From Nitrospirota bacterium (GTDB taxonomy: Bacteria > Nitrospirota > JACRHJ01), in the NCBI GenBank assembly GCA_963698885.1, contig CAVOSJ010000006.1, positions 325,186-389,185 of the forward strand: a DNA stretch of 64,000 nt, read 5' to 3'. The notes beneath the pieces were generated by a model. The model made no database searches. It had not been told where the DNA came from and saw only the letters and a list, made by a program, of their open reading frames with translations. This document shows, piece after piece, positions 16,468 to 53,309 of this stretch; the stretch's first letter is position 1, and each line of letters begins with the position of its first letter. A program made the position numbers and the translations under genes.

Positions 16468-16562
16468 GTTACTTTTCTTTCGAGAAAGAAAAGTAACCAA
16501 AAGAAAGCTGGACTTAAAACCGGTTTTCTTTGGTTACTTTCTTTTTTCCAAAAGAAAGTAAC
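16468..16562. repeat. mosaic palindromic intergenic repeat, copy 2
   Basis: GTTACTTTTCTTTC-GA-GAAAGAAAAGTAAC ... GTTACTTTCTTTTTTCCAAAAGAAAGTAAC. Confidence 0.9.
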
Positions 16563-16584
16563 AAAGGGTTTTCAGGAGATATAG

Positions 16585-17616
<1,032 letters not shown>

Positions 17617-17619
17617 CCC

Positions 17620-17717
17620 GTTACCTTTTTAGTAAAAAGGTAACGCCAAAAACTTTTAAACTTTTTTGGCCCCGCTTTCTTTTGTGTTACTTTTCTTTCC
17701 CGCGAAAGAAAAGTGAC
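17620..17717. repeat. mosaic palindromic intergenic repeat, copy 3 (P hairpin - linker - R hairpin)
   Basis: GTTACCTTTTTAGTAAAAAGGTAAC GCCAAAAACTTTT ... GTTACTTTTCTTTC-CCGC-GAAAGAAAAGTGAC. Confidence 0.9.
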
Positions 17718-17732
17718 GGTTTGGATTCTTAG

Positions 17733-25043: not shown

Positions 25044-25105
25044 TTTACAGCCGCCGGAATCGAAGGCGATTCGGATAAAGCGGCTTAGGATTTTTTAAAC
25101 AACCC

Positions 25106-25202
25106 TTTACTTTCTTTTCGGGTGAAAAGAAAGTAACAAAGAAAAGCCGGAGTTAAAAGCCCAGCTTTCTTTTGCTACTTTTCTTTCTCGAAAGAAAAGT
25201 AG
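25106..25202. repeat. mosaic palindromic intergenic repeat, copy 6
   Basis: TTTACTTTCTTTTC-GGGT-GAAAAGAAAGTAAC ... GCTACTTTTCTTTC-TC-GAAAGAAAAGTAG. Confidence 0.9.
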
Positions 25203-25212
25203 AAAGACTTAA

Positions 25213-26743
25213 ATGCCAACTGAGATAATAGTAAGCGCGAGCCACCAGGAGACACGGGTGGCGCTGTTAGAGAACAAGCTTGTGACGGAGATATTCATCG
25301 AACGGGCGAAGGACCGCGGCAACACCGGCAACGTCTACAAAGGCCGCGTGGTGAAGGTCCTGCCGGGGATGCAGGCCGCGTTCGTGGATATCGGCCTTAG
25401 AGAAATCCGCCTTCCTTTACGTCGCCGACGTCTATAACTCCGTGGAAGAGTACGCCCACATGATGGCGGAGGACATAACGGCGGAAGAAGAGGAGATCGA
25501 GATAGAGGAAGAGGGCCGGCCCAGACGCAGGCGGCCGTCGTCCATGACCATAGAAGAGCTGCTCCAGGAAGGGCAGGAGATAATCGTGCAGGTGGCCAAG
25601 GAGCCTATCGGCACGAAGGGCGCGCGGGTAACGAGCTATGTCACCCTGCCCGGGCGCTACGCCGTCTATATGCCCACCGTGGACCATATCGGCATCTCCC
25701 GCCGGATCGAGAGCGAGGCGGAGAGAAAGCGCCTGAAGGACATAGTGATGTCGCTTAAGAAGCCCGGCGCGGGCTATATCGTCCGCACGGTCTCGGAGGG
25801 CCAGGACGATGCGGAGCTGAAGCGCGATATGGACTTCCTGGAGCTTCTCTGGCAGAGGATACTCAAAAAGAACGAAAAACTCTCCGCGCCGTCAGTGCTC
25901 CATTACGACCTGGACCTGGTCTTCCGCACCATACGCGACCTGTTCACCCTGGACGTCGAGAAGCTGGTGATAGACAGCGCCTCCGAATACCAGAGGGTGA
26001 AGGAGTTCGCCGACGCCTACCTCCCGCAGCTTAGCGAAAAGGTGGAGCTGTACGACAAGGACGAGCCGATATTCGACGCCTACGACGTGGAGATAGAGAT
26101 ATCGCGCGCGCTGGGCCGCAAGGTCTGGCTTAAATCCGGCGGCTATATCGTCATCGACCAGTCCGAGGCCCTGACGGCAATCGACGTGAACACCGGACGC
26201 TACGTCGGGAAACGGAACCTGGAGGACACGATCCTCAAGACAAACCTCGAAGCCGTGAGAGAGATCGCGTATCAGCTGAGGCTTCGGAACATCGGCGGCA
26301 TCATCATCCTGGACTTAATCGACATGGAGAAGGAGGAGAACCGCCGCAAGGTCTATACGTCGCTGCAGGAGTACCTCTCCCACGACAAGGCCAAGACGAA
26401 CATCTACCACCTCTCGGACCTGGGGCTCATCGAGATGACCCGCAAAAGGACGCGCGAGAGCCTGGGCAGAAGCCTTTGCGACCCGTGCCCCTACTGCGAG
26501 GGCCGTGGCTTCATCAAGAGCAGCGTCACCGTCTGCTACGAGATATTCCGCGAGATACGCCGCATCGCCCACTCCGCGAAAGAGAAGAAGATAATGGTCT
26601 CCGTGAACCCGGAGGTGGCGGACCTGCTCTTCGACGAGGAGCGCCAGGGCGTCGATGACCTGGAGATGGAGTTCAAGAAGAAGCTCATAATCAAGGGCGA
26701 CACGACGCTCCACCAGGAGCAGTACGATATCGTGATGGTATAG
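25213..26743 (+). CDS. rng: ribonuclease G/E-family endoribonuclease; one apparent +1 indel near 25397
   Basis: ORF 25213..25437 (S1 domain start, ...AAFVDIGL) continues in the next frame as EKSAFLYVADV... (ORF 25442..26743, catalytic domain). Confidence 0.85.
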
Positions 26744-26746: not shown

Positions 26747-26842
26747 GTACTTTTCTTTCGCGAAAGAAAAGTACCAAAAGAAAGCCGGGCAGTTAAGTCC
26801 GGCTTTTCTTTGTTACTTTCTTTTCACCCGAAAAGAAAGTAA
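26747..26842. repeat. mosaic palindromic intergenic repeat, copy 7
   Basis: GTACTTTTCTTTC-GC-GAAAGAAAAGTAC ... GTTACTTTCTTTTC-ACCC-GAAAAGAAAGTAAG. Confidence 0.9.
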
Positions 26843-26862
26843 GGTCTGCTATAATTATTCCT

Positions 26863-27910
26863 ATGGCCGAGACCGAAAAAATTCCCGAAGAAGCAAAAGA
26901 GATGCTCGCGCGCCTCAAGGAGACGGCGGGCAGCTCCGGGCTGCTGCGGGTGATGATTTACGGGAACCCGGACCCGGACGCCCTGGCTTCCGCGATGGCG
27001 CTGAAGAGCGTGCTGGATGAGGCGACCGGCGGGAAGCTGACGGTGGAACTCAATTACACCGGCGCGGTCGGCAGGCCGGAAAACGCGTCCATGATACGCC
27101 AGTTGAAGATCCCGGTCACCCCGATATCCGAGGCGGAGGCGAAGGACGCGGACAGGATTGCGATAGTGGACGGCCAGCCGCAGTTCTTCCAGGACTTCAC
27201 CCTCCCGCGCTGCGACATCGTTATCGACCATCACCCCAGGCTCCTGGACCGCCCCGTCCCGTTCGAGGACATCCGGCCCGAATACCTCTCCACCTCCTCG
27301 ATAATGACGGAGTACATGCGGGCCTCCGGCATGCGCCTTACGCGGGGGATTGCCAGCGCACTCTTATACGGCATCAAGACCGACTCCCGGAATTTCATGG
27401 CCGACTTATCAATCGGCGACATTGACGCGCTCAAGTGGCTCCGGGCGAAATCCGACCGGGACATAGTGAAGCGCATAGAGTTCTCCCAGTTCTCGCGGGA
27501 CGCGCTGGACTATTTCTCCATCGCGCTGGTGCGGCGGCGGTTCGTGCAGGGCGTGATGTTCACGCACCTGGGCCCGGTGCCCAGCTATGACGTTTGCGTG
27601 CAGATAGCGGACTTCCTGATAAGGGTGGAGCACGTGGAGTGGGCGCTTGTCACGGGCATCGTGGCGACGGAACTGGTGGTGGTATTCAGGAACGACGGGG
27701 TGAAGAAGGACGCGGGCTATCTATCGCGCACGGCTTTCGGAAAGCTGGGGAGCGCCGGGCGGACATAAGTCCATGGGCCGCGCAAGCATCCCTCAGAAGA
27801 ACCTGCCGAACGGGCTACTCCTCACGGATAACAAGGGAATAGAAAAATTCGTCCTGACACAGCTAAGCAAGGTGGACCCGGTTTTCGCGCCGGTGTTGAA
27901 GACGATATAG
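26863..27910 (+). CDS. DHH/DHHA1-family phosphoesterase (NrnA-like); one apparent frameshift near 27760
   Basis: DHH motif region (IVIDHHP), DHHA1-like C-terminus continues in a shifted frame (...GSAGGHKSMGRASIPQKNL...) to a stop at 27908-27910. Confidence 0.75.
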
Positions 27911-29557: not shown

Positions 29558-30469
29558 CTATTTTATAAACGTACCCTTCTCGAACTCCTCGAATGCGACC
29601 CGCAGTTCTTCCCGCGTGTTCATCACGATGGGGCCGTACCATGCGACGGGCTCGCCGATAGGCTTGCCGGATATCAGCAGGAACCGGACCGGGCTATCTT
29701 GCGTGGTGATCGCGACTTCGTCCCCGTCCCCGTATAGGACGAGGTCCTTCGCGGCGCACTTGCACTTCTGCTTGAAGTCGAAATAATTTTCCCCTACCAC
29801 CTCGTGGGCGTAGGCGCTTCGCTCCGGGTCGAAATATCCCTCCCCCTCAACTATATAGGCGAAGACCTTGTACCCGGGCTTGAAGGCGCGGGTAAATGTC
29901 GTTTCCGCCGGTATGGTAACGTCCAGGTATTCAGGGTCCACGACGACATCTGTAACCGGCCCCGACACGTCCCCGACATGTCCGCAGATTATTTTAATCC
30001 GCACTCCGTCCTCGCTGGTTACCTCCGGGATGTCGCCGGCGGAAATCCCACGGTAGCGGGGCGCCATCATCTTCTGCTTTGCTGGCAGGTTCGCCCATAA
30101 CTGGAACCCCCACATAACGCCCGCGGCGTCTCCCTTCGGCATCTCCTGATGGATGATGCCGCTACCCGCCGTCATCCACTGCACGTCGCCGGGATGGATG
30201 ACACCGCTGTTGCCCATGCTGTCCCCATGCTCCACGCGGCCGTTATACATATATGTAATCGTCTCGATGCCCCGGTGCGGATGCCAGGGGAACCCCGGCA
30301 GGTACTCATCGGGAATAGCCGAATGAAAATCGTCCAGCAGCAGGAACGGGTCGAGCTGGGGCACCTGATTATTCCCGAACGCCCGCCGCAGATGCACCCC
30401 CGCCCCCTCGATTGTCGGCTTGCTCACCCATACCTGTTTTATTTTTCGGATTTTCATAGCTTCTCCCAT
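29558..30469 (-). CDS. pirin-family protein (bicupin)
   Basis: 303 aa; FPWHPHRGIETITYMYNGRVEHGDSMGN...HPGDVQWMTAGSGIIHQEMP. Confidence 0.9.
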   Translation of the reverse strand: MGEAMKIRKIKQVWVSKPTIEGAGVHLRRAFGNNQVPQLDPFLLLDDFHSAIPDEYLPGFPWHPHRGIETITYMYNGRVEHGDSMGNSGVIHPGDVQWMTAGSGIIHQEMPKGDAAGVMWGFQLWANLPAKQKMMAPRYRGISAGDIPEVTSEDGVRIKIICGHVGDVSGPVTDVVVDPEYLDVTIPAETTFTRAFKPGYKVFAYIVEGEGYFDPERSAYAHEVVGENYFDFKQKCKCAAKDLVLYGDGDEVAITTQDSPVRFLLISGKPIGEPVAWYGPIVMNTREELRVAFEEFEKGTFIK

Positions 30470-30644
30470 GTCAGCCCGTTTTGACCTCTGAACGTCCGCT
30501 ATTTAAATTTAACAGGTTTTTTCGGAATACGCATGGGCGGGGATGTTGCATAACGCGCGCGGGCGTATGAGAAAGAGAGGGGCGGTCAGATGCTTTGGTG
30601 CGGGTTTTTATTCCCGATTCTGAAACCGGCGTTAATGATGAGCT

Positions 30645-31134
30645 TTATTTGTCAGTAGCAGCTTCAAGTTGGTTTATTAAAAGTTCCCAATTATTACGAC
30701 TCATTTCATCTTCATGCATTTTTTGTAAAATTATCTCACGTCCGAATTCAAATTTTTCGCCTACGTCATTTTTTACGTAGTTTTGATTTGCTGCCGCAGC
30801 ATCTAATAGTTTAAAATCCATTTCAATTTCTTCAGGCTTCCGGAAGTTATTTTTTTTAACATGGATTAATAACTTATGAAATGCAGTTGTTGTAAATTTT
30901 TTCTTGCTGTCCCAGGATGTTAATAAAGAGATACCGAGTTTCATAAAAATAATCATCCATTAAAACTATCTCCTGTGTAAGAGCATCGAAATCAGCTCTT
31001 TTCATTTTTTTTCCAGTACGGGTATTATAGCTGTTAATTGCATCTTTAAAGTCATTAATATCATGTTCATTCAATTTATCCACCCGTGTCTTTGAGAATA
31101 CTTTAGATAATTTATCCATTTCTTCTGTATTCAA
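30645..31134 (-). CDS. hypothetical protein encoded in the low-GC island (about 163 aa); frame change at a homopolymer near 30895-30920
   Basis: ORFs 30874..31134 and 30645..30956 overlap in different frames across an A/T homopolymer; no family recognised. Confidence 0.5.
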
Positions 31135-31225
31135 CTTAGGATAATCGCAGAATCTTCTTTTGAAGAGGAATTCACAGGAGAGGAACTTTTATCGGAAAAA
31201 ATATAATAAGGCCAAACAACCCCTT

Positions 31226-31378
31226 TTAAAGTGGAAACAACCTCACCCAAAAAAACCATTTTACGAAGCCATTATCTCTTGCATATTGCCAATTAAATCG
31301 AGGTACAAACAGGGAGCAAGCGGCTATATAGAAAAAGAAAATAACGACAATTAATTTTCCGATTGGGTTGTTTGGCAT
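31226..31378 (-). CDS. candidate small hydrophobic peptide (50 aa: MPNNPIGKLIVVIFFFYIAACSLFVPRFNWQYARDNGFVKWFFWVRLFPL)
   Basis: below the ORF-track length cutoff; one predicted TM helix; start codon lies inside the right arm of a perfect 12-bp inverted repeat (31365-31376) whose partner (31212-31223) follows the stop. Confidence 0.25.
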   Translation of the reverse strand: MPNNPIGKLIVVIFFFYIAACSLFVPRFNWQYARDNGFVKWFFWVRLFPL

Positions 31379-31469
31379 AAGTCAAAACCTGTTTTATATT
31401 TGCTAACCCGCTAATGCCAAATATACCACTTCTTAAAAAAATGAAATTGGAGACAGGAATTCGGAACAG

Positions 31470-31800
31470 GTCCCTTATCTTTTCCGTTCTTAATAACCCC
31501 TCTTGCTTAATTGGGCTAAGCCATCATCGGTTCACATTTATTCAAAAAAAATAAAAAAATCGACAAATTTTTTACGGTATCGAATTCATGACATCTCCAC
31601 GCTCGGCACAATGCATTTTAGGGGGTCAGGGGCGGGTTTTTGAGACGTGAGTTTTTGGGGAAATGCAGAGATTTTCCCAGATTTTAAATAGGGTTACGCC
31701 ACTATACTGCGGCAATTCCGAAATCGGGTTTTGCATTTCGCAAGTCATTGAAAAGTAAGGAATATTTTTAGCGAAAAAATGCGAAAAAACGCCGGGATTT
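31470..31800 (-). repeat. ~300 bp non-coding module A, homologous to 49141-49435 (opposite strand)
   Basis: by-eye alignment of A against the reverse complement of B: shared blocks CGGTATCGAATTCATG, GGGGGTCAGGG, CCGATGATGGCTT(A/G)GCC, ATAAATGTG, CATTGAAAA(G/T)TAA(G/A)G(A/G); roughly 70 percent identity. Confidence 0.75.
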
Positions 31801-31837: not shown

Positions 31838-32813
31838 TCAGAATGACAGGTTCACGGCCTCCCGCACTTCCTCCATCGTCTCCCCCGCGACCTTGCGGGC
31901 GGTCTCTGCCCCGGCCTTCAGCATCTCACGCGTCTCGTCCTCACGGCCTGTCAGCGCGGCCCTTTTCTCCCGGAATGGCGCAAGGTAAGTGCTTAATATT
32001 TCGGCTAAATAGCTCTTGTGCTTCACGCAGCCAAGCCTTCCGGCCCGGCAGCCCTCATCGGCTAAAGGCGCGTCATTTGGCCCGAACGCCTTGTGGTAGT
32101 CCTGGACGGAGCAGATGTCCGGGTCGCCCGGGTCGGTCGCGTGGATTTTCTTAGGGTCCGTAATGAGTTGCATCACTTTCGGCTTCAATCTCTTCCGGCG
32201 GCTCGTCCAAAAAAATGGCGTTATTCAAGGACTTGGACATCTTCCGGCCGTCCGTGCCCGGCAGCTTCGGGGTCTGTGTCAGGAGCGCCTTCGGCTCCGG
32301 AAAAACCTGTTTATACCGATGGTTAAACGCCCTCGCGATCTCTCTGGCAAGCTCGATATGCGGGACCTGGTCAACCCCAACCGGCACCGCGCCCGCCTTG
32401 TATAACATTATGTCCGCCGCCTGAAGCACCGGGTATCCCATCAGGCCGTAGTTCACGCCATGTAAGTGCATGTCTTCAATCATGTTTTTTAGCGTCGGGT
32501 CCCGCTCCAGCCAGGGCATGGGGGTAATCATCCCGAAAAGGAGATAAAGCTCCGCATGCTCCTTCACATCGGACTGGACGAATACCGTCGAGCGGGAGAA
32601 ATCGATACCCAGCGCCCGCCAATCCAAAGCCATTTCCATAATGTTTTTAGGAAGTTCGGAGGTATCGGCGTAGGCGGTGGTCAGGGCGTGCCAGTCGGCG
32701 GCCATGAAAAAACATTCATACTCTTCCTGCAACGATAGCCAGTTGCCGAGCGCGCCGACTAAGTGCCCGATATGCAGTCTGCCGGTAGGCCGCATCCCGG
32801 ATAAGAGCCTCAT
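31838..32813 (-). CDS. trpS: tryptophan--tRNA ligase; one apparent frameshift near 32160-32190
   Basis: ORF 32151..32813 has class-I aaRS HIGH (TGRLHIGH) and KMSKS motifs; the C-terminal anticodon-binding part continues in ORF 31838..32188. Confidence 0.9.
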
Positions 32814-34480
32814 AAAGCAAAATCTCCCGCCTCCAGGTGTTCCTTTATGCGGTGCAGGAACTCATTCGCGGTCAAGCCGTCAACCACACGGTGGTCGTAG
32901 GAGAGCGCTATGTACATCATGGGCCGGATGGCGATGGCGTCCTCGCCGTCTTCCGCCGTAACTACCACGGCGCGCTTTACCAGCTCTCCCATCCGGAGTA
33001 TCCCCACCTGCGGCTGGCTGATTATCGGCGTCCCGAACAGGTTTCCATGCCTGCCGGGATTTGTCACGGTGAACGTCCCGCCTGCCATTTCGTCGGGGGT
33101 TATCTTTTTATCCCGCACTTTTACGGAAATCTCGGAGAGCGCCTTTGCCAAATCCAGCAGGGACATATCCTCCGCGCCCTTTATCACCGGGACCATCAGG
33201 CCCCGCTCGGAGTCCACGGCCACGCCCAGATTTATATGCCGCTTCGTAAGGATAGCATACCCCTGAACCACCGAATTCATCAGCGGGAACTCCTTCAAGG
33301 TCCTGATCGCCGCCGCCATGACGAAAGGCGTGTAAGTAAGGCTTATTCCCACTTCTGCCTTGATTTTATCTTTATTACGCTGTCGTATCCCCACTATATG
33401 TTCAAAATCGGCTTCCGTTATGGTCGTAACATGGGCCGACGTCCTTTTGCTGTAAACCATGTGGTCGGCGATTAATAGTCTGAGGCGCGAGAACGGAAGC
33501 TCCGCGTCACCCTCTTCTACTTCATAGGAAGGCGGCTTATATACCCCGTATCCTGCATGCATTTCAGGCGGGGGGGCCGACTCCAGAAGCTCTTCCTGCA
33601 CTATCCGGGGCGAAGGCGCCGGTTGACCGGCTTCGGACTTAATTTCTTTCCCTTCTCGCCTCTCTTTCTCCGGCTTTCCCCCTGCAGGCACCGTCTCTTC
33701 CGGCCCGGCCTTTTTCTCCGCGAGCACGCGCATAACGTCCGCCTTGGTTACCCGACCGCCTTCGCCGGTGCCTTTAATGGCCTTTAAATCCACGCCATGC
33801 TCCATAGCCAGGCGCATGACCGCAGGCGAGTAAAACCCGGACTTATCTGTGATCGCTCCCGCTGCTGCCTCAGGTTCCGGTACCTCCCGTTTTATCTCCG
33901 GCGGGGGGGTCAACTCCTCTTCGGGCCGGGTTTCCCGCTTTGCCTCGACGGCAGGGATTCCTTCCGCACGCGCGGGATGCTCCGACGGGCCGTCTCTTTT
34001 TATCGCCATCTCCGGCGGTTTGCCCTCTACAGTGGTCTTTGCCTCCGAGGTCTCTTGCGGAGGCGCAGTCTCTACCTTCGCGGTCTCAACCTTTTTTTCT
34101 ATTTCCGAACCAGGAACGCCTTCGGCAGGCTTCATGGCTTCCGGTTTCTCAGGCACGGCCTCTTCCGGCTTCGCGGCCTCCGGCGTTTCTGGTTTTTTGG
34201 GCTCCATAGCTCCCGGTTTAGGAGCATCTTTCCCCACTACCGCCGGTTTTTCATCAATCCTCGCTATTAACGCTCCCACTTGTATCGTTTCGCCCTCTTT
34301 GGCGATTATCTCCGTAAGGACGCCGGAAACGGGCGACGGGACATCCACGTCCGCCTTGTCCGTGGAGACCGTCACCAACGGATCATCGGCTTTTACCTTC
34401 TGCCCCTCATCCACCAGCCAGACGGATATCGTCCCTTCGGCTATGCTCTCCCCCATCTGGGGCATCTTTACGTCGGTCAT
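32810..34480 (-). CDS. 2-oxoacid dehydrogenase E2 component (dihydrolipoamide acyltransferase) with long Pro/Glu/Ala-rich linker
   Basis: N-terminal lipoyl domain (VSTDKADVDVPSPVSG), E3-binding domain, C-terminal catalytic domain with DHRVVDG motif. Confidence 0.9.
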   Translation of the reverse strand: MTDVKMPQMGESIAEGTISVWLVDEGQKVKADDPLVTVSTDKADVDVPSPVSGVLTEIIAKEGETIQVGALIARIDEKPAVVGKDAPKPGAMEPKKPETPEAAKPEEAVPEKPEAMKPAEGVPGSEIEKKVETAKVETAPPQETSEAKTTVEGKPPEMAIKRDGPSEHPARAEGIPAVEAKRETRPEEELTPPPEIKREVPEPEAAAGAITDKSGFYSPAVMRLAMEHGVDLKAIKGTGEGGRVTKADVMRVLAEKKAGPEETVPAGGKPEKERREGKEIKSEAGQPAPSPRIVQEELLESAPPPEMHAGYGVYKPPSYEVEEGDAELPFSRLRLLIADHMVYSKRTSAHVTTITEADFEHIVGIRQRNKDKIKAEVGISLTYTPFVMAAAIRTLKEFPLMNSVVQGYAILTKRHINLGVAVDSERGLMVPVIKGAEDMSLLDLAKALSEISVKVRDKKITPDEMAGGTFTVTNPGRHGNLFGTPIISQPQVGILRMGELVKRAVVVTAEDGEDAIAIRPMMYIALSYDHRVVDGLTANEFLHRIKEHLEAGDFAL

Positions 34481-34944
34481 TTTGGCACCTTACAGATTCT
34501 TCTTTGCCAACCGTTTCGAGTTAATTTCCGATGTGATCACTGTCATTATGATTGCTCCAAGGAACGCCGTGTGCGATTTTGTCCAATGGTATAAATTTTA
34601 TTCAGGCCACTCTCATCGCGATATTTTCTGCAACAATAGTCTCTTGCAAATATCAAAATCCATAAACCTCCGTTCACGTGACCATATATCATCTCCTTAT
34701 TTTTAAGATATGAGGGTAATTCTTTGACACCCTCTTTGCCTTAATATCTTATCATTAATATTCCAAGCAGAAGAAACTTCGCAAAATATGCTACCTTATC
34801 CTTTAGCGTCATGGCCACGAAATAGGATAATACTCTCTTCTATCCAGCTTGCTTCTCAACTCGATACTGAGGGCATTTATAACAACATGCGGCCATTCGC
34901 CAAGTAATTCATTACGATTGTCTTCATGTATATCCAAATGCTCC

Positions 34945-35922
34945 TTAATATCCCGCCAGTTTCCGCGCCGCCGCAAGGACCTTGTCCTTGTTCGGCAGGA
35001 TGTACTCCTCCATCGGCCCGGCGAAGGCGTTATGCGTATCCTTCGAGCCTACGCGCATTACTGGCGCATCGAGGTACTCGAATGCGTTCTCCATGATTAT
35101 CGCCGAGACCTCGCCTCCGATGCCGCCGGTCAACCGGTCCTCGTGGACTATCAGCACCTTGCCCGTCTTCTTCGCGCAGGAGAGTATCGCCTGCCTGTCC
35201 AGCGGCAGGAGCGTCCGCAAATCCAGCACCTCGGACGATACGCCTTCCTTCTCCAGTTCTTCAGCCGCCGCGAGGCAGAGGTAGAGCGCGGAGCCGTAGG
35301 TGATGAAGCAGATGTCGTCGCCCTCGCGCCGGAGCGCCGCCTCTCCAATTGGGACGATATAGCTGTCCTCGGGAATATCCTCCTTTATGCGCCGGTACAG
35401 GAACTTGTGCTCGAAGTACACTACCGGATCGTCGTCCTGAATTGCGGCGATAAGGAGCCCCTTGGCGTCGAATGCCGTCGCGGGCGCGACGACTTTAAGC
35501 CCTGGCACGCGCGTGAACCAGGCCTCCGGGTTCTGCGAATGGAACAGCCCGCCCCGCACGCCGCTACCGGACGGGCAACGGACCACCATCGGGCATTTGG
35601 CCTTCCCGCCGTGCCTGTACCGAAGTGTCGCCGCCATGTTCACGAGCTGGTCGAACCCGCAGGAGATGAAATCCGCGAACTGCATCTCCGCCACCGGCCG
35701 CATCCCGGCGATAGCAAGCCCGACCGATGCGCCGTTGATGAGAGATTCGGAAATAGGGGTATCGATTACCCGCTCCGGGCCGAACTCCTCGAACAGCCCC
35801 TCCGTGGCCAGAAACGCCCCGCCCAGCGCGGCAATGTCCTCGCCCAGGAGCACGACGTCAGAGTCCAGCCGCATGGACTGCCGGAGCGCTTCGTTAATCG
35901 CTTTTATGTAAGTCAGTTCCAT
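34945..35922 (-). CDS. 2-oxoacid dehydrogenase E1 component beta subunit (transketolase-like)
   Basis: 325 aa; MELTYIKAINEALRQSM...VVLLGEDIA...typical E1-beta. Confidence 0.9.
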   Translation of the reverse strand: MELTYIKAINEALRQSMRLDSDVVLLGEDIAALGGAFLATEGLFEEFGPERVIDTPISESLINGASVGLAIAGMRPVAEMQFADFISCGFDQLVNMAATLRYRHGGKAKCPMVVRCPSGSGVRGGLFHSQNPEAWFTRVPGLKVVAPATAFDAKGLLIAAIQDDDPVVYFEHKFLYRRIKEDIPEDSYIVPIGEAALRREGDDICFITYGSALYLCLAAAEELEKEGVSSEVLDLRTLLPLDRQAILSCAKKTGKVLIVHEDRLTGGIGGEVSAIIMENAFEYLDAPVMRVGSKDTHNAFAGPMEEYILPNKDKVLAAARKLAGY

Positions 35923-35932
35923 TAAAACCTTT

Positions 35933-36027
35933 GTACTTTTCTTTCGGGAAAGAAAAGTACCAAAAGAAAGCTGGGCTTAAAAACAGTCCAAAAGTTTTTG
36001 GCGTTACCTTTTTCCCAAAAAGGTAAC
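35933..36027. repeat. mosaic palindromic intergenic repeat, copy 8 (inverse module order: R - linker - P)
   Basis: GTACTTTTCTTTC-GG-GAAAGAAAAGTAC ... AAAAGTTTTTGGC GTTACCTTTTTCCCAAAAAGGTAAC. Confidence 0.9.
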
Positions 36028-36031
36028 GAAT

Positions 36032-37000
36032 TTATACCGGCGTCGCGTACAGCCCCTCCATCGCCTCCGGGCCGTCCGGCTCCGGGGAGTATTCCGCGAA
36101 TTTCACCGCCTCGTCCACCACCGCCTTTACTTTGGCGCCCGTCTCTTCCATTATTTTCGCCACGTCGTACCCTTTCTTTTCGAGGAAGAACTCGTAGCGC
36201 TGGATGGGGTCGCGGCTTTCCCACTCGATAAGCTCCTCCTTCGCCCGGTACGAGGCCATGTCGTGTTCGCTGTGGCCGGAGTAGCGGTAGGTCTTGCATT
36301 CGATCAGCTCCGGTCCCTCGCCACGCCTCGCCTGGTCGATTGCATGCTCCACCGCGCGCAGGACGGCAAAGAGGTCGTTGCCGCTGCACACGTGCCCATG
36401 AAAGCCGTATCCGGCCGCCCTGTCCGCCACGTCCTCTACCGCCATCTGATTGGATTGGGGCGTGGAAAAAGCGTAGAAGTTGTTCTCGCAGACGAAAACG
36501 ACGGGGAGCTTATGGACGCCGGCGAAGTTCAGCGCTTCGTGGAAATCGCCCCTGGAGGACGCGCCCTCGCCGAAAAAGGCGACGACTACCCGCGGCTCCT
36601 TCCTGATTTTAAACTTCAAGGCGACACCGCAGGCGACCGGCAGGGACGAGGCAAGCATGGAGGTGGAGCCGACTACACCGTTCTCCAGGACGCCGGCGTG
36701 CAGGAACGAGTCCCTGCCCCCGGAGAAGCCCGTCTTTTTGCCCATTATCTGGGCCATCAGGAGGTTCGGGTCAACGCCCTTTACGAGGAACGCGCCCAGG
36801 TCGCGGTGCAGAGGGAAGATGAAATCGTCGGGCTTCAGTCTATAAACCGAACCGACGACTACAGCCTCCTGACCGAGGCCGGAGTAAACGCCGCCCGGTA
36901 TCTTACCCTGGTGGTGTAACTTGGAGACCCTGTCCTCAAACTCACGGACGAGGCGAAGGTGGTAATAGAGATCGAGGTCCTGGTCCACACGCCTCCTCAC
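36032..37000 (-). CDS. 2-oxoacid dehydrogenase E1 component alpha subunit (TPP-dependent)
   Basis: 322 aa; TPP-binding blocks (GEGASSRGDFHEALNFA...) typical of E1-alpha. Confidence 0.9.
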   Translation of the reverse strand: MRRRVDQDLDLYYHLRLVREFEDRVSKLHHQGKIPGGVYSGLGQEAVVVGSVYRLKPDDFIFPLHRDLGAFLVKGVDPNLLMAQIMGKKTGFSGGRDSFLHAGVLENGVVGSTSMLASSLPVACGVALKFKIRKEPRVVVAFFGEGASSRGDFHEALNFAGVHKLPVVFVCENNFYAFSTPQSNQMAVEDVADRAAGYGFHGHVCSGNDLFAVLRAVEHAIDQARRGEGPELIECKTYRYSGHSEHDMASYRAKEELIEWESRDPIQRYEFFLEKKGYDVAKIMEETGAKVKAVVDEAVKFAEYSPEPDGPEAMEGLYATPV

Positions 37001-37492
37001 TCACGCCAATTTAAATCCTTTATTCTTTTTGAGGTACGGGACCAGTCCACCCGCCTCGAGGATATCCGTCATAACCTGGGGCATCGGCGGGAACGGCAGC
37101 TCGATACCCTTGGTCTTATCCCTTAATACCCCGGCTTTAAGGTCCAGCTCGAGCTCGTCCCCGTCCTCTATCTGGTCGGTATCAACGCGTACAGCCGGCA
37201 TGCCGATATTTATGCAGTTCCGGAAGAAAATCCGGGCGAAGGACTTGGCGGCGACACATGAGGTCCCGGCCATTTTTATAATCACCGGGGCATGCTCGCG
37301 GGAGGAGCCCATGCCGAAATTTGTCCCGCCCACGACGAAGTCGCCGGGTTTTACCTGGGCCCTGAACTCGTCGCGTGCGTCCTCCAGGACGTGCTTGGTA
37401 AGCTCCGGCAGGTTCGTCCTCAGGTACGCGTACCGGCCAGCCGCGATTAAGTCAGTGCTTATATTGTCCCCGAACTTCCAGGCCCTTCCCAT
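37001..37492 (-). CDS. leuD: aconitase-family dehydratase small subunit (LeuD-like 3-isopropylmalate/homoaconitate dehydratase)
   Basis: 163 aa swivel-domain protein immediately downstream of the large subunit. Confidence 0.75.
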   Translation of the reverse strand: MGRAWKFGDNISTDLIAAGRYAYLRTNLPELTKHVLEDARDEFRAQVKPGDFVVGGTNFGMGSSREHAPVIIKMAGTSCVAAKSFARIFFRNCINIGMPAVRVDTDQIEDGDELELDLKAGVLRDKTKGIELPFPPMPQVMTDILEAGGLVPYLKKNKGFKLA

Positions 37493-37506
37493 GGAACCTC
37501 CAGACC

Positions 37507-37604
37507 GTTACCTTTTTGGAAAAAGGTAACGCCAAAAACTTTTGGACTGTTTTAAGCCCGGCTTTCTTTTGTGTTACTTTTCTTTCACCCGAAAGAAAAG
37601 TAAC
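37507..37604. repeat. mosaic palindromic intergenic repeat, copy 9 (between large and small dehydratase subunits)
   Basis: GTTACCTTTTTGGAAAAAGGTAAC GCCAAAAACTTTT ... GTTACTTTTCTTTC-ACCC-GAAAGAAAAGTAAC. Confidence 0.9.
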
Positions 37605-37607
37605 GGT

Positions 37608-38867
37608 TTATATATATTTTCTTGGGTCGGCAAGCTTCCCTTCGATGGCGGAGGCCGCGACCAGCGCGGGCGAGGCAAGGTAAACGAATGACTTGGGGTT
37701 TCCCATCCTGCCCTTGAAGTTCCGGTTTATGGAGGCGGCGCAGTTCTCGCCGTCGCCCAGGATACCTTCATGGCTTCCGGGGCATGCCCCGCATCCCGGC
37801 GAATTGATTACGCCGCCCGCATCCAGGAATATATCCATAAGACCTTCGGCCATCATCTTTCGATAGACGCTCTTGGTGCCCGGTGTTACGACGAGCCTTG
37901 AGCCGGGGGCGACATGCCTTCCCTTCAGCACCCTGGCCGCCGCCTCGAAATCCTCGAAATAACCGTTGGTCGTAGAGCCAAGGTACGCCTGCTGGATCGG
38001 GACGTCTTTGCAGTCCGGGTGCGAGATGGGCCTCGTGTTGTCCACCATGTGTGGGAAAGAGACCATCGGCTCAAGGCTGCCCGCGTCTATCTTGACTTCC
38101 CTGACGTACTTCGCGCCGGGGTCGCCCTTTATCTCCTTGAAATCACTCTCGCGCTTATTCTCGCGGAGCCAGTCCAGGGTATGCCCGTCCGATTCGAACA
38201 GGCCGCACTTCCCGCCGGCTTCCACGGCCATCGACGAAATAGTCGTCCTTCCGGGGATGGATAACCCCTCGATGGTATCCCCGAAGAACTCAAGGGACTG
38301 GTATGTCGCGCCGTCCGCGCCGATTAAGCCGATAAGGTAGAGGATGATGTCCTTGGAATATACCCCCGGCGAAAGCTTCCCGGTGACTTCCACCCGGATT
38401 GCCTCCGGGCACAGCATCCAGGTCTCGCCTGTGGCCATGGCGACCGCGATGTCAGTCGAGCCCATGCCGGTGGCGAAGGCACCCAATGCGCCGCCCTGGC
38501 AGGTATGGGAGTCCGCCCCGACCATCAGCATGCCGGGTGACGTGACCTGCTCGCCCAGGACCAGGTGGCTCACCCCGCCGCCTATGTCGGAGAGCATGCA
38601 GCCGGAGTCCCTGGCGTACTCGCGGAGCTTGACGTGCCCGGTGGAGACTTCCTTGAAGGAAGACGGGGAGGCGTGGTCTATAAATACGGCGGTATGGGAG
38701 GGGACTTTTGCAAGTCCCGCTCCCAGTTCCACAATCTTGTCAACCGTCAGGGGGCCGGTCCAGTCCTGCACGTAGGCGAAATCTACCTTCACCACGGTCA
38801 GCTCGCCTGCGTGTACCTCGTGCCCCGCATGCATGGAGATAAGTTTTTCAGCCAGGGTCAGCGGCAT
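37608..38867 (-). CDS. leuC: aconitase-family dehydratase large subunit (LeuC-like)
   Basis: about 420 aa; Fe-S ligand cysteines (CGACPGS region), aconitase fold blocks; start set at internal ATG 38867. Confidence 0.8.
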   Translation of the reverse strand: MPLTLAEKLISMHAGHEVHAGELTVVKVDFAYVQDWTGPLTVDKIVELGAGLAKVPSHTAVFIDHASPSSFKEVSTGHVKLREYARDSGCMLSDIGGGVSHLVLGEQVTSPGMLMVGADSHTCQGGALGAFATGMGSTDIAVAMATGETWMLCPEAIRVEVTGKLSPGVYSKDIILYLIGLIGADGATYQSLEFFGDTIEGLSIPGRTTISSMAVEAGGKCGLFESDGHTLDWLRENKRESDFKEIKGDPGAKYVREVKIDAGSLEPMVSFPHMVDNTRPISHPDCKDVPIQQAYLGSTTNGYFEDFEAAARVLKGRHVAPGSRLVVTPGTKSVYRKMMAEGLMDIFLDAGGVINSPGCGACPGSHEGILGDGENCAASINRNFKGRMGNPKSFVYLASPALVAASAIEGKLADPRKYI

Positions 38868-38871
38868 ATTC

Positions 38872-39486
38872 TTACGCCGCCCTTCCCAGGGCCTCATCCA
38901 GTTTCAGGGATGTCTGAAGGCGCTTCTCCACCACGTTCCAGTCTATGTTCTGGAAGAACGCGTCAAGGTATGCCGCGCGCTTTACGCCGTAGTCTATCAT
39001 GTAGGCGTGCTCATAGACGTCCAGTATCAGAAGCGGGATCTCATTCCAGATAGCGCCGATATCGTGCATATCCATCATGTAGTTGTGCAAAGTGTTGTCG
39101 TTCATGCTCCAGGAGAGCACGGCCCAGCCGCGTCCGGACATTCCGACCGCCTTGAACTGTGCCATCCAGTTATCGAACGAACCCCAGCGCTCTTTTATCA
39201 TCTCCGCTATCCTGCCGCCTGGCGCGCCTCCCTTGCCGCCGAGGTTCTCGAAATACCACTCGTGCAGAAAAACGGCGTTTGTCGTAAAGGACTTCTCCTT
39301 GAACATCTCCCGGATAACGGCGTAAGTGGCGTTTGCGCCTTCGGTCGGCGCTTTTTTTATCTCTTCCTCAAACATGTTCAATTTATCCACGTATCCCTTA
39401 TAGAGCACGTCCCTGTGCTCCTGGATCTGCCTGTCGGAAATGCCCTTGAGTTTACCTTCCAGCTTGAATTCCTTTACTTTGTGCAT
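38872..39486 (-). CDS. Fe/Mn-family superoxide dismutase-like protein
   Basis: about 204 aa; SOD-like blocks incl. DVYEHAYMIDYG (variant of the DxWEHAYY signature); AGGA RBS before internal ATG 39486. Confidence 0.65.
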   Translation of the reverse strand: MHKVKEFKLEGKLKGISDRQIQEHRDVLYKGYVDKLNMFEEEIKKAPTEGANATYAVIREMFKEKSFTTNAVFLHEWYFENLGGKGGAPGGRIAEMIKERWGSFDNWMAQFKAVGMSGRGWAVLSWSMNDNTLHNYMMDMHDIGAIWNEIPLLILDVYEHAYMIDYGVKRAAYLDAFFQNIDWNVVEKRLQTSLKLDEALGRAA

Positions 39487-39728: not shown

Positions 39729-41262
39729 ATGGAGCATAACCCCTCAACCCGGAACCAGGAAGTAAATGACCGTAGACTGCTTGAGGCGAGCCTCGACCCG
39801 ATCGTGGCGATAAACCTGGAAGGCAAGTTCGCCTACGTCAATGAGGCTATGGTAAGGGTCACGGGCATCCAGAGGGACGCCCTCATCGGGTCGGACCATT
39901 ACGGCTATCTTAACCGAGCCCGAAAAGGGGAAGGAGGGCCTTCTGCAGGCTATAACGAAAGGGTCCATCACCGACTATCCCCTGACCTTCAAGCACACGG
40001 ACGGGCACCTGACGGACGTACTTTGCAACGCCTCCGTTTACCGCGATGAAGAGGGCAAAGTCGCCGGCATCTTCGCGGAGGTAAGAGATATTACCGAGAG
40101 AAAAAGGGCCGAAGAGGCCCTCCGAGAGGCCGAAGCATATAACAGGAGCCTGCTGGAGGCGAGCCTCGACCCGCTCGTGGCAATAAATCTGGAGGGCAAG
40201 TACGTGTACGTCAACGAGGCTACGGAGAAGGTCACGGGCCTTTCGAGGGACGCTCTGATAGGGTCGGACTTCACAGGCTACTTCACCGAGCCCGAAGAGG
40301 CGAGAAAGGGTTACTTGCTGGTTTTTGCGACAGGGTCCGTCACCGACTATCCCCTCACCATCCGGCACAAGGACGGGCATCTGACGGACCTGCTTTGCAA
40401 CGCCTCCGTTTACCGCGATGAATGGGGCAAAGACGCCGGCATCTTCGCGGTGTCGAGAGATATTACCGAGAGAAAACGGGCCGCCGAGGCTCTTCGAGAG
40501 GCCGCAGCGTATAACAGAAGCCTGCTGGAGGAGGTAAGAAAATTAAACCTGGAGCTGGAGCAGAGGGTACGCGACCGGACTGCCCAGTTAGAGTCCGCCA
40601 ACTGCGAACTGGAATCCTTCAGCTACTCGGTCTCCCACGACCTGCGCGCGCCCCTTCGGAGCCTGGACGGCTTTTCCCAGGCCATCCTGGAGGAATATTC
40701 GGACAGGTTAGATGAAAAAGGGAAAGACTACCTGGGAAGGATCCGGCTTGCCAGCCAGAGGATGGGCCATCTTATAGACGACATGCTGAAGCTATCCCGG
40801 GTGACAAGGAGCGAGATGCGCTTTGAAAACGTGGACCTGACGGGGATTGCGAGAGAAATAGGAGATGAACTGAGTAGGGCGGAGCCGGGGCGCAAGGTCG
40901 AATTCATTATAGAAGAAGGCGTCACGGCATGGGGCGACTTGCCGCTGCATGCGGATGGTTATGCAGAACCTGCTGTCGAATTCCTGGAAATTCACATCCA
41001 GGCACGAGAAGGGGGTAATACAGTTCGGCGTCTCGGAGATGGGGGGGAAGAAAATTTATTTCGTGAAGGACGACGGCGCCGGTTTTGACATGGACTATCC
41101 GACAAACTCTTTACCCCATTCCAGCGTCTGCATTCCACGGCGGAGTTTCCGGGGACGGGCATTGGCCTCGTAATCGCAAAAAGGATTCTAAAGCGGCACG
41201 GGGGCGAAATCTGGGCTACGGCGAAACCGGAAAAAGGGGCGACCTTTTATTTCTCATTTTGA
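39729..41262 (+). CDS. tandem-PAS sensor histidine kinase (PAS-PAS-HisKA-HATPase_c); at least three apparent indels (near 39912, 40940, 41108)
   Basis: ORFs 39711..40049, 40177..41088, 40949..41173 and the frame ending at 41262 piece together into one kinase (H-box [13 protein letters not shown]; G-box GTGIGL). Confidence 0.8.
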
Positions 41263-46109: not shown

Positions 46110-46125
46110 ACACCCTCTCAAGGTC

Positions 46126-46218
46126 GTTACCTTTTTGGGAAAAAGGTAACACCAAAAACTTTTAAACTAAAAACAGTCCGGCTTTCTTTTGGTACTTTTC
46201 TTTCATCCAGAAAGTAAC
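46126..46218. repeat. mosaic palindromic intergenic repeat, copy 10
   Basis: GTTACCTTTTTGGGAAAAAGGTAAC ACCAAAAACTTTT ... GGTACTTTTCTTTCATCCAGAAAGTAAC. Confidence 0.9.
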
Positions 46219-46233
46219 AGTTACCGGCCTATC

Positions 46234-47016
46234 TTAAGCTGCGGCCCGGTAGCCCCATTTCATGAAATGGTCTTCCGTCCCTATCTCTCCCGACAACTCG
46301 TCCGACTGTTCCGACGCCAGAAAAACCGCCAGCTTCGCTACCTCGGACGGCTGCTTTAACTGGCCGGATTTTTTAAGGCCCCAGAAGACCCGGTATGCGT
46401 CCGGCCCCAGCACGTTCATGTCCAGCTTACGGATGTCGTCATGCATCCTGGTGTCCACGGAGCCGGGGTCCATCCCGTAAACTTTAATATTATACGGTTC
46501 GAGCTCCCGCGCCAGCGCCTTCGTCAGCGCGTTCAGCCCCGATTTAGATATGCTGTAGGCGCCCAGGCGCGGAATAACGAAGTCAGCCAGGCCTGAAGTA
46601 ATGTTTATTATCTTGCCGTAGCGTTTTTTAATCATACCCGGGATGCACGCCTTCGACAGGAGCCATGCGCCGGTGAGGTTAATATCCATGCAGCGGTGGA
46701 ACTCGGGGTCGGGAATATCCTTCATGGGGGCGATAGGGCCGGTTACCCCCGCGTTATTCACCAGTATGGAAGGCGGGCCGAACTTCATCTCCACCGCGCG
46801 GTAGAGGTTCTTTACGTCCCCCGGGTCGGACACGTCCGCTTTTATCGCGATGGCCTGCCCGCCCTTGTCCGCAATAATGGAAACCGTATCTTCCAGTTCC
46901 TCCCTGGTCCTGGAAGCAACCGCCACTTTCGCGCCAGCCTCAGCCAAGGCTACGGCAATTGCGCGCCCAAGACCCCGCCCGCCGCCGGTTACGACAGCAA
47001 TCCGCCTTTTGAGCAC
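46234..47016 (-). CDS. SDR-family oxidoreductase (short-chain dehydrogenase/reductase)
   Basis: VVTGGGRGLGRAIA cofactor motif, catalytic YxxxK region; GTG start at 47016 preceded by GGAGG. Confidence 0.85.
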   Translation of the reverse strand: MLKRRIAVVTGGGRGLGRAIAVALAEAGAKVAVASRTREELEDTVSIIADKGGQAIAIKADVSDPGDVKNLYRAVEMKFGPPSILVNNAGVTGPIAPMKDIPDPEFHRCMDINLTGAWLLSKACIPGMIKKRYGKIINITSGLADFVIPRLGAYSISKSGLNALTKALARELEPYNIKVYGMDPGSVDTRMHDDIRKLDMNVLGPDAYRVFWGLKKSGQLKQPSEVAKLAVFLASEQSDELSGEIGTEDHFMKWGYRAAA

Positions 47017-49020: not shown

Positions 49021-49096
49021 CGCCGCTTAATCTGCTAAACTTTCCTCTATATGAAATCCGCAATCTTAATCAGCCCCGGCGTGATGTATAAACCGC
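49021..49096 (+). repeat. left direct repeat: duplicated 5' end (upstream region + first 12 codons) of the Zn-ADH gene
   Basis: shares an identical 37-nt core TATGAAATCCGCAATCTTAATCAGCCCCGGCGTGATG with 51292-51328 plus similar flanks; encodes MKSAILISPGVM then diverges to a stop. Confidence 0.85.
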
Positions 49097-49140: not shown

Positions 49141-49435
49141 CGAAAATACCTTTAATTTTCAATAACTTCTAAAAGTGCAAAGCGTGATTTCCATGCCGCC
49201 GAAATTGGCCGAAAAGTGGACGTAACCATATGTAAAACAAGGGTAAAAATACCGCCGCCCCATTAAAAACATATGCCTCCAAAACCCATCCCTGACCCCC
49301 CAAAATCGCCGCATTTACCCTGACAACCCCCCATGAATTCGATACCGCATGAAATTCGTTGATTTTTCCATTTATATATGGATAAATGTGGGCCGATGAT
49401 GGCTTGGCCGATTAAGGAGGAATAGCTATTAAAAG
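49141..49435 (+). repeat. ~300 bp non-coding module B, homologous to 31470-31800 (opposite strand); contains TTGATT-17 nt-ATAAAT promoter-like hexamers and the REase RBS
   Basis: by-eye alignment to the reverse complement of module A (see module A entry). Confidence 0.75.
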
Positions 49436-49449
49436 CAGGGAGGAAAGTT

Positions 49450-51240: not shown

Positions 51241-51340
51241 CGCCGCATCTTTAATCTTTTGCTTTTCAAGCCAGTTCTGCTAAAATCTCCTTATGAAATC
51301 CGCAATCTTAATCAGCCCCGGCGTGATGGAAATAAACCGC
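51241..51340 (+). repeat. right direct repeat: authentic promoter-proximal region and 5' end of the Zn-ADH gene
   Basis: partner of 49021-49096; contains the true ADH start codon at 51293. Confidence 0.85.
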
Positions 51341-52319
51341 AAGGCCCCGGTGCCTTCGCCCGGGCCGGGCGAGGTCGTCGTGCAGGTGAAGGCGGCGCTC
51401 ACCTGCGGCACGGACATAAAGGCATATCTCAGGGGCCATCCGAAGATACCGATGCCCTCGCCGCTCGGGCACGAGTTCTCAGGCGACATCTATAAAATCG
51501 GCGAAGGGGTGGAAGGCTGGGCGGAGGGCGATGCTGTAATGGCGGTGCATTCCGCGCCGTGCGGCGAGTGCGCGTTCTGCAAGATGGGCAGGGAGAACCT
51601 CTGCACGACCATAATGGACGAAAAAGTCCTGGGTGCGTATGCGGACTTCATAAAGCTCCCGGCGCGCGTCGTGAAGCAGAACATGTTCAAAAAGCCCGAG
51701 TCGCTCCCCTATCCGGAGGCGGCGATGCTGGAGCCGCTCGCGTGCGTCGTGCACGGGTACCGCATGACGGAGGCCGAGAAGCCGAAGAGCGTCCTGATAC
51801 TTGGCGCGGGGCCGATAGGGCTTCTGCACCTGATGCTGCATAAGAAAAACGGCGCGAAGGTCATCCTCGCGGGCAGGAGGGCCGACCGGCTTGAGACGGC
51901 GAAGGACCTGGGCGCGGACGCCGTGCTGGAAGGCGACCTCCAGGACATCGCATGGAAGGTAACCGAAGAGACCGAGGGGCTCGGCGCGGACCTTGTCATC
52001 GAAGCGACCGGGAACAAGGACCTCTGGGAGAACTCGCCGTCCCTTGTGAGACGCGGCGGGACGGTACTGCTGTTCGGGGGCTGTCCCTCCGGCACGCGCG
52101 CCTGTTTCGACGCCGGACGCGTCCATTACGACGAGATAAAGCTGATGGGCGCGTTCCATTTCACGCCCTCGGACGTCAAGGCGGCTTTCGAGCCTCCTGA
52201 CAGCCGAAAGGTTAAACGTCTCCAAACTAATCTCGGGAAGGTATAACCTGGACGACCTTCAGATAGCGTTCGACGAGCTTATCGGCGGCCGAGGGATAAA
52301 GTTCGCGATAATACCGTAA
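51293..52319 (+). CDS. zinc-dependent alcohol dehydrogenase (MDR family); apparent frameshift near 52200
   Basis: GHEFSGD catalytic-zinc motif, structural-zinc Cys cluster (CGECAFC), GAGPIGL Rossmann; C-terminus continues in shifted frame (...YNLDDLQIAFDELIGGRGIKFAIIP). Confidence 0.85.
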
Positions 52320-52322
52320 ACC

Positions 52323-52399
52323 GTTACCTTTTTTGTAAAAAGGTAACGCCAAAAACTTTTGGACGTTTTTGGCTCCACCTTTTTCCGTAAAAAGGTGGA
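52323..52399. repeat. mosaic palindromic intergenic repeat, copy 11 (P - linker - P-variant)
   Basis: GTTACCTTTTTTGTAAAAAGGTAAC GCCAAAAACTTTT ... CCACCTTTTTCCGTAAAAAGGTGG. Confidence 0.85.
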
Positions 52400-52408
52400 A
52401 AAGGTTTT

Positions 52409-53309
52409 ATGCTCCCGTACGAAATACTCCGCAAAATTAAGCGACTGGAAATTAAGACCTCCCGGCTGGTCGAGGGCGCGCTCTCCGGCGGATACCTGTC
52501 CACGTTCAAGGGGCGGGGTATCGAGTTCACCGAGGTGCGCGAGTACGTACCCGGCGACGACGTCCGGGCGATAGACTGGAACGTTACGGCCAGGACGGGC
52601 ATCCCCCACATCAAGACGTTTGTCGAGGAGAGAGACTTAACCGTCATGCTCGCCGTGGACGTATCGGCCTCGATGGACTTCGGCACTACTACACAAACAA
52701 AAAAAGAGCTGGCCGTGGAGTTCGCCGCCGCCGCCGCGCTCCTCGCCGCCCAGGGCGGGGACAGGGCGGGGCTTATCGCATACACGGACAGGGTGGAGTT
52801 GTTTATCCCGCCTAAGCGCGGCAAAAGACACGTCTATAACCTCCTGACCGCGCTCTCGACAATCACACCGAAGGGCAAGAGGACGGACCTGGCCGCACCC
52901 GCCGAGCTGCTTATACGCGCGCTTAAAACCCGCTCCACGCTGTTCTGGGTATCGGACTTCCTGGAGGCCGGTCTGCCGGTCTGCGGCCACCGGCACGCGC
53001 GCGCTGAAGGCGCTCTCACGGCGGCACGAGCTTGTGCCGGTCGTGCCCTCGGACAGGCGGGAGCGCGAGCTTCCGCCAGGGGGCGGGATGGCGGAGCTTA
53101 TCGACCCGGAGACGGGCGCCTTAGTCCTGGTGGACCTCTCGTCCCCCCGTTTTATTAAGGCGTTTAAAAGCTGGAAAGACGAGGCGGAAAAGGGCAGGAC
53201 GGCGCTTTTTAACGCCCTGAAGGCGGAGCCCGTATGGCTTGCCACGGGCAGTTCGCCCATCACGCCGCTCGCGAGATACTTCCACCGGCACGCGAGGAGG
53301 CGCGTCTAA
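52409..53309 (+). CDS. DUF58-domain protein (MoxR-associated); apparent frameshift near 52970
   Basis: GRGIEFTEVREYVPGDDVRAIDWNVTARTG...LAVDVSASM; C-terminus continues in ORF 53034..53309. Confidence 0.8.

Follow-up and report, generated by a model that had tools for sequence, protein, structure and literature searches.

Horizontal gene transfer hot spots without recognisable mobile elements, diversified by recombination in the flanking core genes, have been documented (Oliveira, Touchon, Cury and Rocha 2017, PMC5635113). The model for such sites is illegitimate acquisition followed by homologous exchange via the flanking core genes (PMC5635113). The spacer described here, which separates the E1-beta and E2 genes of a 2-oxoacid dehydrogenase operon in a Nitrospirota bacterium, is best read as a new example of this known phenomenon: an AT-rich islet that varies between strains and sits at a hot spot of horizontal transfer. 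It was analysed within a 64,000-nucleotide stretch of contig CAVOSJ010000006.1, called the window below. As in the published hot spots (PMC5635113), variable content of foreign composition lies between conserved core genes, strains hold unrelated content or none, neither integrase nor transposase is present, and turnover is rapid. The junction differs from them (PMC5635113) in its scale, with only 0.2-1.5 kb and zero to three genes, in its position, not between transcription units but within an operon whose two genes otherwise stand 1 bp from each other, and in that no raised recombination is detected in the short flanks of the three to five sequences compared. Its content differs among close genomes with conserved flanks and its composition deviates from that of the host, as is characteristic of a hot spot.

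Prophage morons offer a second comparison. A moron is an extra gene that lies between two adjacent genes in one phage and is absent from its relatives, and it typically carries its own promoter and terminator. The locus shares with morons a gene-sized insert of deviant composition between conserved neighbours, present in some relatives and absent from others. Unlike a moron, it sits in a chromosomal housekeeping operon, has no detected promoter or terminator and, in the window, holds no intact gene.

The spacer and its operon

The spacer lies among the following features.

34481-34944, minus strand: E1-beta/E2 spacer (AT-rich insert), 464 bp, GC 0.386
34945-35922, minus strand: E1-beta gene (Pfam), 325 aa, stop codon TAA at 34947-34945; left flank of the insertion site
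32810-34480, minus strand: E2 acyltransferase gene (Pfam), 556 aa, with lipoyl, E3-binding and catalytic domains; borders the insertion site on the right
36032-37000, minus strand: E1-alpha gene (Pfam)
37608-38897, minus strand: aconitase-family large subunit
37001-37492, minus strand: aconitase-family small subunit
32151-32813 and 31838-32188, minus strand: TrpRS-type tRNA synthetase gene, in two pieces
29558-30469, minus strand: pirin, with an AT-rich island between it and TrpRS
34486-34491, minus strand: AAGGTG, a putative Shine-Dalgarno-like motif inside the insert, 5 nt before the E2 ATG
35923-36031: E1-alpha/E1-beta gap, 109 bp, with REP-like palindromic copies at 35933-35976 and 35984-36020

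The AT-rich gap of 460 bp noted in the preliminary description of this DNA is real: it measures 464 bp, with a GC content of 0.386 (38.6%) against a window mean of 0.563 (56.3%). For 464-bp sliding windows over the whole stretch, the first percentile of GC is 0.366 and the fifth 0.457, which places the spacer among the lowest few percent. Both of its ends are exact at codons, the E1-beta stop on one side and the E2 start (ATG at 34480-34478) on the other, and both genes are intact. There is no tRNA anywhere in the window. The composition and the length of the gap exceed chance; its ORF content does not.

Downstream of E2, the TrpRS-type gene (31838-32813, minus strand) is split into ORFs of 220 aa and 116 aa that overlap at 32151-32188. 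A run of seven T residues lies about 15-20 nt upstream of the overlap, and the gene is intact in relatives, where it mostly encodes 324 aa. The split reflects either a sequencing error at the homopolymer or a genuine frameshift.

On the other side of E1-beta, the 109-bp gap to E1-alpha does hold the repeat copy previously reported there, in the form of REP-like palindromes. This gap is a second operon junction of variable length, ranging from 3 to 608 bp across relatives. Two REP-like palindromic families, GTTACTTTTCTTTC...GAAAGAAAAGTAAC and GTTACCTTTTTGG..AAAAAGGTAAC, occur, often together, in most intergenic gaps of the window, for example in the following.

11459-11575, 16458-16577, 17610-17722, 25086-25218, 26747-26863 and 35923-36031: gaps with REP-like repeats
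37496-37616, 46116-46234, 52313-52425, 56216-56274, 57524-57644 and 59585-59692: further gaps with REP-like repeats

The REP-like copy at 37506-37606 is missing in the close relative L161; thus these repeats vary between strains.

Other islets and repeats in the window

The window has only three AT-rich islands, namely the spacer, 30.5-31.8 kb and 48.4-49.8 kb. A second AT-rich islet at 30551-31506 (GC 0.35), 3 kb from the spacer and between TrpRS and pirin, contains overlapping orphan ORFs of 86 aa and 103 aa. L161 and L177 have other, unrelated AT-rich DNA in its place (903 bp and 1426 bp, respectively), and the alignment of L162 ends at the same islet boundary (window position 31475). This replacement pattern suggests that variable islets may be common in this population.

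A repeat of about 240 bp (31480-31720 and, in reverse complement, 49200-49440) is found in two of the AT-rich islands, its copies being about 70% identical with blocks at 81-83%. The first copy ends at the conserved/variable boundary downstream of TrpRS and the second abuts a low-GC gene pair; neither has an Rfam or tRNA match. The repeat could be a recombination site or the end of an element. A direct repeat of 42 bp, with copies at 49045-49086 and 51287-51328 that are 95% identical, includes the start codon of a 317-aa gene at 51293, by eye a putative alcohol dehydrogenase. It brackets a lower-GC island of 2.2 kb with a 398-aa putative DNA methyltransferase, also identified by eye, and a 200-aa ORF. 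To judge from its sequence, the segment 49045-51328 looks like a putative restriction-modification island inserted with duplication of the 5' end of its target gene. A tandem duplication at 39759-40531, with a period of about 372 bp and copies 81-84% identical, overlaps two ORFs, one at 39910-40380 on the minus strand and one at 40177-41088 on the plus strand.

The junction in orthologous operons and close relatives

The orthologous set comprises 93 loci that hold both the end of E1-beta and the start of E2. In these loci the two genes are separated by a median of 23 bp (interquartile range 12-77 bp, 95th percentile about 486 bp), and by more than 400 bp in only nine operons (9/93). In some Acidobacteriota operons (L029, L031, L033, L040, L070 and L044), the same junction carries an extra element of 370-485 bp, a gene for a protein of about 95 aa (MPKYVIEREIPGAG...) that is presumably DUF4242-like. 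The resemblance to the window ends with the extra element at the same junction: the Acidobacteriota element is one conserved gene of near-host GC found across genera, whereas the window spacer is unrelated to it and AT-rich.

When genomes and metagenomes were scanned with E1-beta, the matches listed were at most about 72% identical; the close relatives come from a protein search. This search yielded E1-beta proteins 77-100% identical to that of the window, the named ones belonging to Nitrospirota/Nitrospirae MAGs. The relatives compared at the junction have E1-beta identities of 84-98% and are listed below.

L161: E1-beta 98%; 25-bp gap
L177: E1-beta 97% at the amino acid level (from the protein search; frameshifted gene); 24-bp gap
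L164-167: E1-beta 92%; 1-bp gap
L170-172: E1-beta 88%; 1-bp gap, with a 608-bp AT-rich insert (GC 0.35) at E1-alpha/E1-beta instead
L175/176: E1-beta 84%; 64-bp GC-rich palindromic element
L162: E1-beta 98%; 488 bp, GC 0.39; glycine-rich, membrane-like ORF of 163 aa, beginning directly behind the E1-beta TAA and overlapping the E2 ATG
L163: E1-beta 92%; 512 bp, GC 0.36; 160-aa ORF with weak helix-turn-helix similarity
L168: E1-beta 96%; 211 bp, GC 0.31; 66-aa ORF with the look of a two-helix membrane protein; 10 bp left before E2
L169: E1-beta 95%; at least 214 bp, GC 0.28; open frame to the contig end
L173/174: E1-beta 87%; 1515 bp, GC 0.45; three ORFs, one of them DUF559 endonuclease-like; a 37-nt inverted repeat brackets the insert

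The junction is thus filled in the window and in five other lineages, each time differently, and measures 1-64 bp in five lineages. The inserts of the relatives have GC contents of 0.28-0.45 against 0.55-0.60 for their loci, and blastn and tblastx detect no similarity between any two of them or with the window spacer. The window flanks are about 91-97% identical at the nucleotide level to L161, L162 and L177, the three closest relatives, up to the stop and start codons, so the 464 bp are an insertion or replacement specific to this genome. The suggestion that the spacer is the remnant of an insertion is supported by these genomes: it is absent from L161 and L177 (flanks 90-97%) and replaced by unrelated sequence in L162. 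A conserved spacer of similar size and composition in orthologous operons would have spoken against this suggestion; the spacer is not conserved, and in L162 and L163 the same place holds DNA of similar size and GC but unrelated sequence. By these alignments, at least six independent fillings of the junction have taken place in this lineage. Patches of apparent homology between the spacer and the L162 insert in a MAFFT alignment were rejected, the best blastn and tblastn E-values being 0.09 or worse.

At the neighbouring junction, the 608-bp insert of L170 (positions 2174-2781, GC 0.35) contains an 84-aa ORF resembling a membrane protein with a zinc ribbon; the insert of L170-172 was recovered in three separate records (ENA, NCBI and JGI).

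The spacer might instead be an assembly artefact, produced by a chimeric join or misassembled metagenome reads. The contig is of the MAG type, the neighbouring TrpRS gene is frameshifted at a T7 run, and the exact insert is seen in this one assembly. Against this, an artefact would have had to join precisely at the E1-beta stop and the E2 start and leave both genes intact, and analogous inserts are found at the same place in other assemblies. Moreover, the L173/L174 insert at this junction and the L170-172 insert at E1-alpha/E1-beta are each identical across separate records. We give the artefact reading almost no credence.

The filled alleles share an arrangement. Four unrelated insert ORFs in the relatives are co-oriented with the operon, follow the E1-beta stop at a distance of 0 or -1 nt and nearly fill their inserts, and every relative's insert ends with an AGG-containing motif just before E2. 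Database searches of the insert ORFs with PADLOC and NCBIfam gave weak matches only, except for DUF559 in one L173 ORF. Such regularity might be explained if the E1-beta/E2 stop/start junction were a dedicated capture site, where recombination would place AT-rich orphan cassettes, made up of ORFs alone and without promoters, exactly between a stop codon and the following start codon, and translational coupling within the housekeeping operon would express them, the window spacer being a decayed cassette. The relatives' inserts do resemble integron cassettes in being promoterless, ORF-only, co-oriented and reliant on upstream expression signals. Unlike integron cassettes, they are so filled by their ORFs that no room is left for attC (the L162 ORF overlaps the E2 ATG and that of L168 leaves 10 bp). 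They have no shared ends, and no integrase is encoded by the neighbouring genes examined. No imperfect palindrome is common to the insert ends. Selection for unbroken translational coupling to E2 may also yield flush insert ORFs, by filtering. We hold a dedicated capture site to be improbable.

Insertion scars are likewise lacking at the window spacer. There are no terminal inverted repeats or flanking target-site duplications at its ends, no ends shared with other inserts and no integrase or recombinase nearby among the genes examined (aconitase-like, E1, E2, TrpRS and pirin). A nested or composite insertion with duplicated target was also considered, based on the spacer motifs GATATTAAGG, which is like the E1-beta end, and ATGACGCTAAAG, which is like the E2 start plus the first bases of the L162 insert. 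It was discarded, as 111/500 and 432/500 shuffles align at least as well.

Coding potential of the spacer

Four short ORFs lie in tandem on the sense strand of the spacer.

34809-34937, minus strand: ORF A, 42 aa if read from an internal TTG; stop codon overlapping the ATG of the next ORF (ATGA); chance-level
34741-34818, minus strand: ORF B, 25 aa (GTG start) or 23 aa (ATG start), hydrophobic in its C-terminal half (VAYFAKFLLLGILMI); chance-level
34546-34692, minus strand: ORF C, 48 aa, without credible homolog; the ORF singled out in the preliminary description
34490-34546, minus strand: ORF D, 18 aa; its start shares bases with the ORF C stop (TAATG), and the TAA that ends it overlaps the AAGGTG region

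ORF C had been described as a 47-codon, Cys-rich frame, the longest of the spacer, directly preceded by AAGGAG. It is present at 34546-34692, its length is 48 aa, and with two Cys in 48 residues the term Cys-rich is an overstatement. A TTG ORF of 55 aa (34809-34976) is longer, yet it starts within E1-beta. The AAGGAG (34698-34693) does adjoin the ATG of ORF C, but with no nucleotide between them it is too close to work as a Shine-Dalgarno sequence.

A functional spacer could encode at least one small protein, made by coupled translation of successive ORFs on the operon mRNA; candidates are the hydrophobic 23-25-aa peptide of ORF B (34741-34818), which might behave as a small membrane toxin, and the 48-aa ORF C. 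ORF statistics were obtained from 2000 dinucleotide shuffles of the spacer. Sense-strand coverage by ORFs of at least 18 aa amounts to 86%, which is marginal against the shuffles (P=0.04); it is made up by the four tandem ORFs, with overlapping stop/start codons at two junctions (ATGA and TAATG). The same-site inserts of relatives are clearly coding, several of them for small membrane proteins, and in L162 and L163 the insert ORFs are longer than chance, none of 500 shuffles (0/500) reaching their open frames. By these shuffle tests, the L162 and L163 inserts are unambiguously coding whereas the window insert is not: both its longest ORF (48 aa, P=0.29) and its longest stop-free run (64 codons, P=0.17) are within chance. 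Further points against small proteins are the zero spacing of the AAGGAG and a hydrophobic stretch in ORF B of just about 15 residues.

Homology searches point the same way. No spacer reading frame has a Pfam or PHROGs match, and the exact sequences of the short ORFs are absent from the protein collection. An exhaustive HMMER search with ORF C found no credible homolog, just summed weak matches to tandem-repeat proteins. The top hits, P0127 (E=1e-25) and P0128 (8e-5), were rejected as homologs: both are tandem-repeat proteins, and their scores add up 7 and 5 weak, near-identical stretches, respectively. Word-indexed protein searches with the spacer frames or the insert ORFs joined by X also gave no match, which carries little weight since the same format missed proteins known to be in the collection. 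Taken with the ORF statistics, we regard a small-protein function as unlikely.

ORF B invites comparison with type I toxin-antitoxin loci, which the spacer resembles in its length of a few hundred bp, its sporadic distribution and a 23-25-aa peptide with a hydrophobic half. It differs from them in that the ORF is at chance level and no antisense promoter or terminator, structured RNA or family match is found.

RNA, promoter and repeat searches

The preliminary description had also proposed an internal promoter or regulatory leader for E2, or an sRNA locus, and neither idea fares well. A leader or promoter in the spacer could uncouple E2, and TrpRS downstream of it, from E1. Promoters frequently arise in AT-rich DNA, and the spacer is directly upstream of E2 and provides its putative ribosome-binding site. 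However, close relatives with flanks about 95% identical at the nucleotide level have 1-25 bp here, so E2 does not need the spacer, and it is not conserved in them. The promoter search, which covered the sigma-70 type alone (-35 and -10 hexamers with 16-18 nt spacing), found 0 sites on both strands, where shuffled sequence would be expected to give 1.4. The spacer matches no riboswitch or leader family and shows no excess structure. A regulatory role for the spacer is, on balance, quite improbable.

For a small RNA, sense or antisense, the setting is apt in that sRNA genes are usually found in long ORF-poor intergenic DNA. The scan against Rfam, however, gives no spacer match at the gathering score and chance-level hits only up to an E-value of 10. 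Predicted folding shows no excess stability over dinucleotide shuffles on either strand (z = -1.15 and -0.62), and no intrinsic terminator is present in the spacer on either strand, just as no sigma-70-like promoter is. The spacer is not conserved in any relative examined. An sRNA gene is accordingly highly improbable. Elsewhere in the window, a molybdenum/tungsten cofactor riboswitch (RF01055, 57682-57826, plus strand, 44.2 bits, above the gathering score) lies upstream of a 557-aa ORF at 57916-59589.

Internal repeats of the spacer are short and weak, the best being an inverted repeat of 18 nt at 78% identity, located 25 and 70 nt inside the ends. Its reading as a MITE was rejected, the repeat being weak, internal and without target duplication. 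REP/BIME-like repeats and MITEs do occupy intergenic gaps of this genome, including that between E1-alpha and E1-beta, and are strain-variable like the spacer. The spacer differs from them in being single-copy in the window, in belonging to none of the repeat families and in having just the weak internal inverted repeat. No second copy was found in the window or in loci L001-L176. A viral origin was considered and set aside. Phage and plasmid records contain no blastn match to the spacer, and in viral contigs there is neither an exact match to one spacer 24-mer nor any relative of the L162 and L163 insert ORFs.

Probable origin and maintenance of the insert

The spacer is probably a horizontally acquired AT-rich insert at a small intercistronic insertion hot spot, most likely the decayed remnant of a cassette or island that is passively carried. 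The junction shows presence/absence and replacement polymorphism, and the spacer has a foreign composition and no coding, RNA-family or structural signal. The word foreign refers here to composition and absence from relatives, since neither donor nor homolog was found.

Under this acquisition model, the DNA would have arrived by illegitimate insertion and then been spread or replaced via homologous recombination in the flanking core genes. The model for known hot spots would fit the junction, though divergence beside it is not raised: the flanks are no less identical in the bins beside the junction than in those farther off, as judged from three to five sequences with short flanks. The insert holds no intact gene and most likely derives by decay from either a small ORF cassette or a larger island. 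The flanks are about 5% diverged, time enough for a useless ORF to decay or an island to be trimmed, which favours the decayed-remnant reading. A counterpoint is the ORF coverage of the sense strand with its overlapping stop/start junctions, which could mean translation. The homopolymer-associated frameshift of TrpRS in this assembly also means that the spacer ORFs might be broken by sequencing errors.

The insert would have no function of its own and would be transcribed passively within the operon mRNA; with no terminator-like site in it, the operon transcript should read through. The AAGGTG at its 3' end would supply ribosome binding for E2, replacing the 1-bp stop/start coupling of the empty alleles. 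Its location 5 nt before the E2 ATG could explain why the insert is tolerated.

Implications

The spacer is a real feature and likely an insertion remnant, rather than a conserved regulatory element or an RNA gene. The insert at E1-beta/E2 is ordinary genome variation at an unusually small, busy site, and the spacer is best annotated as passenger DNA, without an invented function. What sets this hot spot apart is that it is a single intercistronic junction within a conserved central-metabolism operon. At least six unrelated AT-rich fillings occur among genomes with E1-beta 84-98% identical, and most encode orphan proteins flush with the upstream stop. A specific insertion mechanism, if true, would be new. 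The alleles form a natural series for studying the tolerance of foreign ORFs, their expression via translational coupling and their decay. Horizontal-transfer hot spots can be as small as one stop/start junction in an operon.
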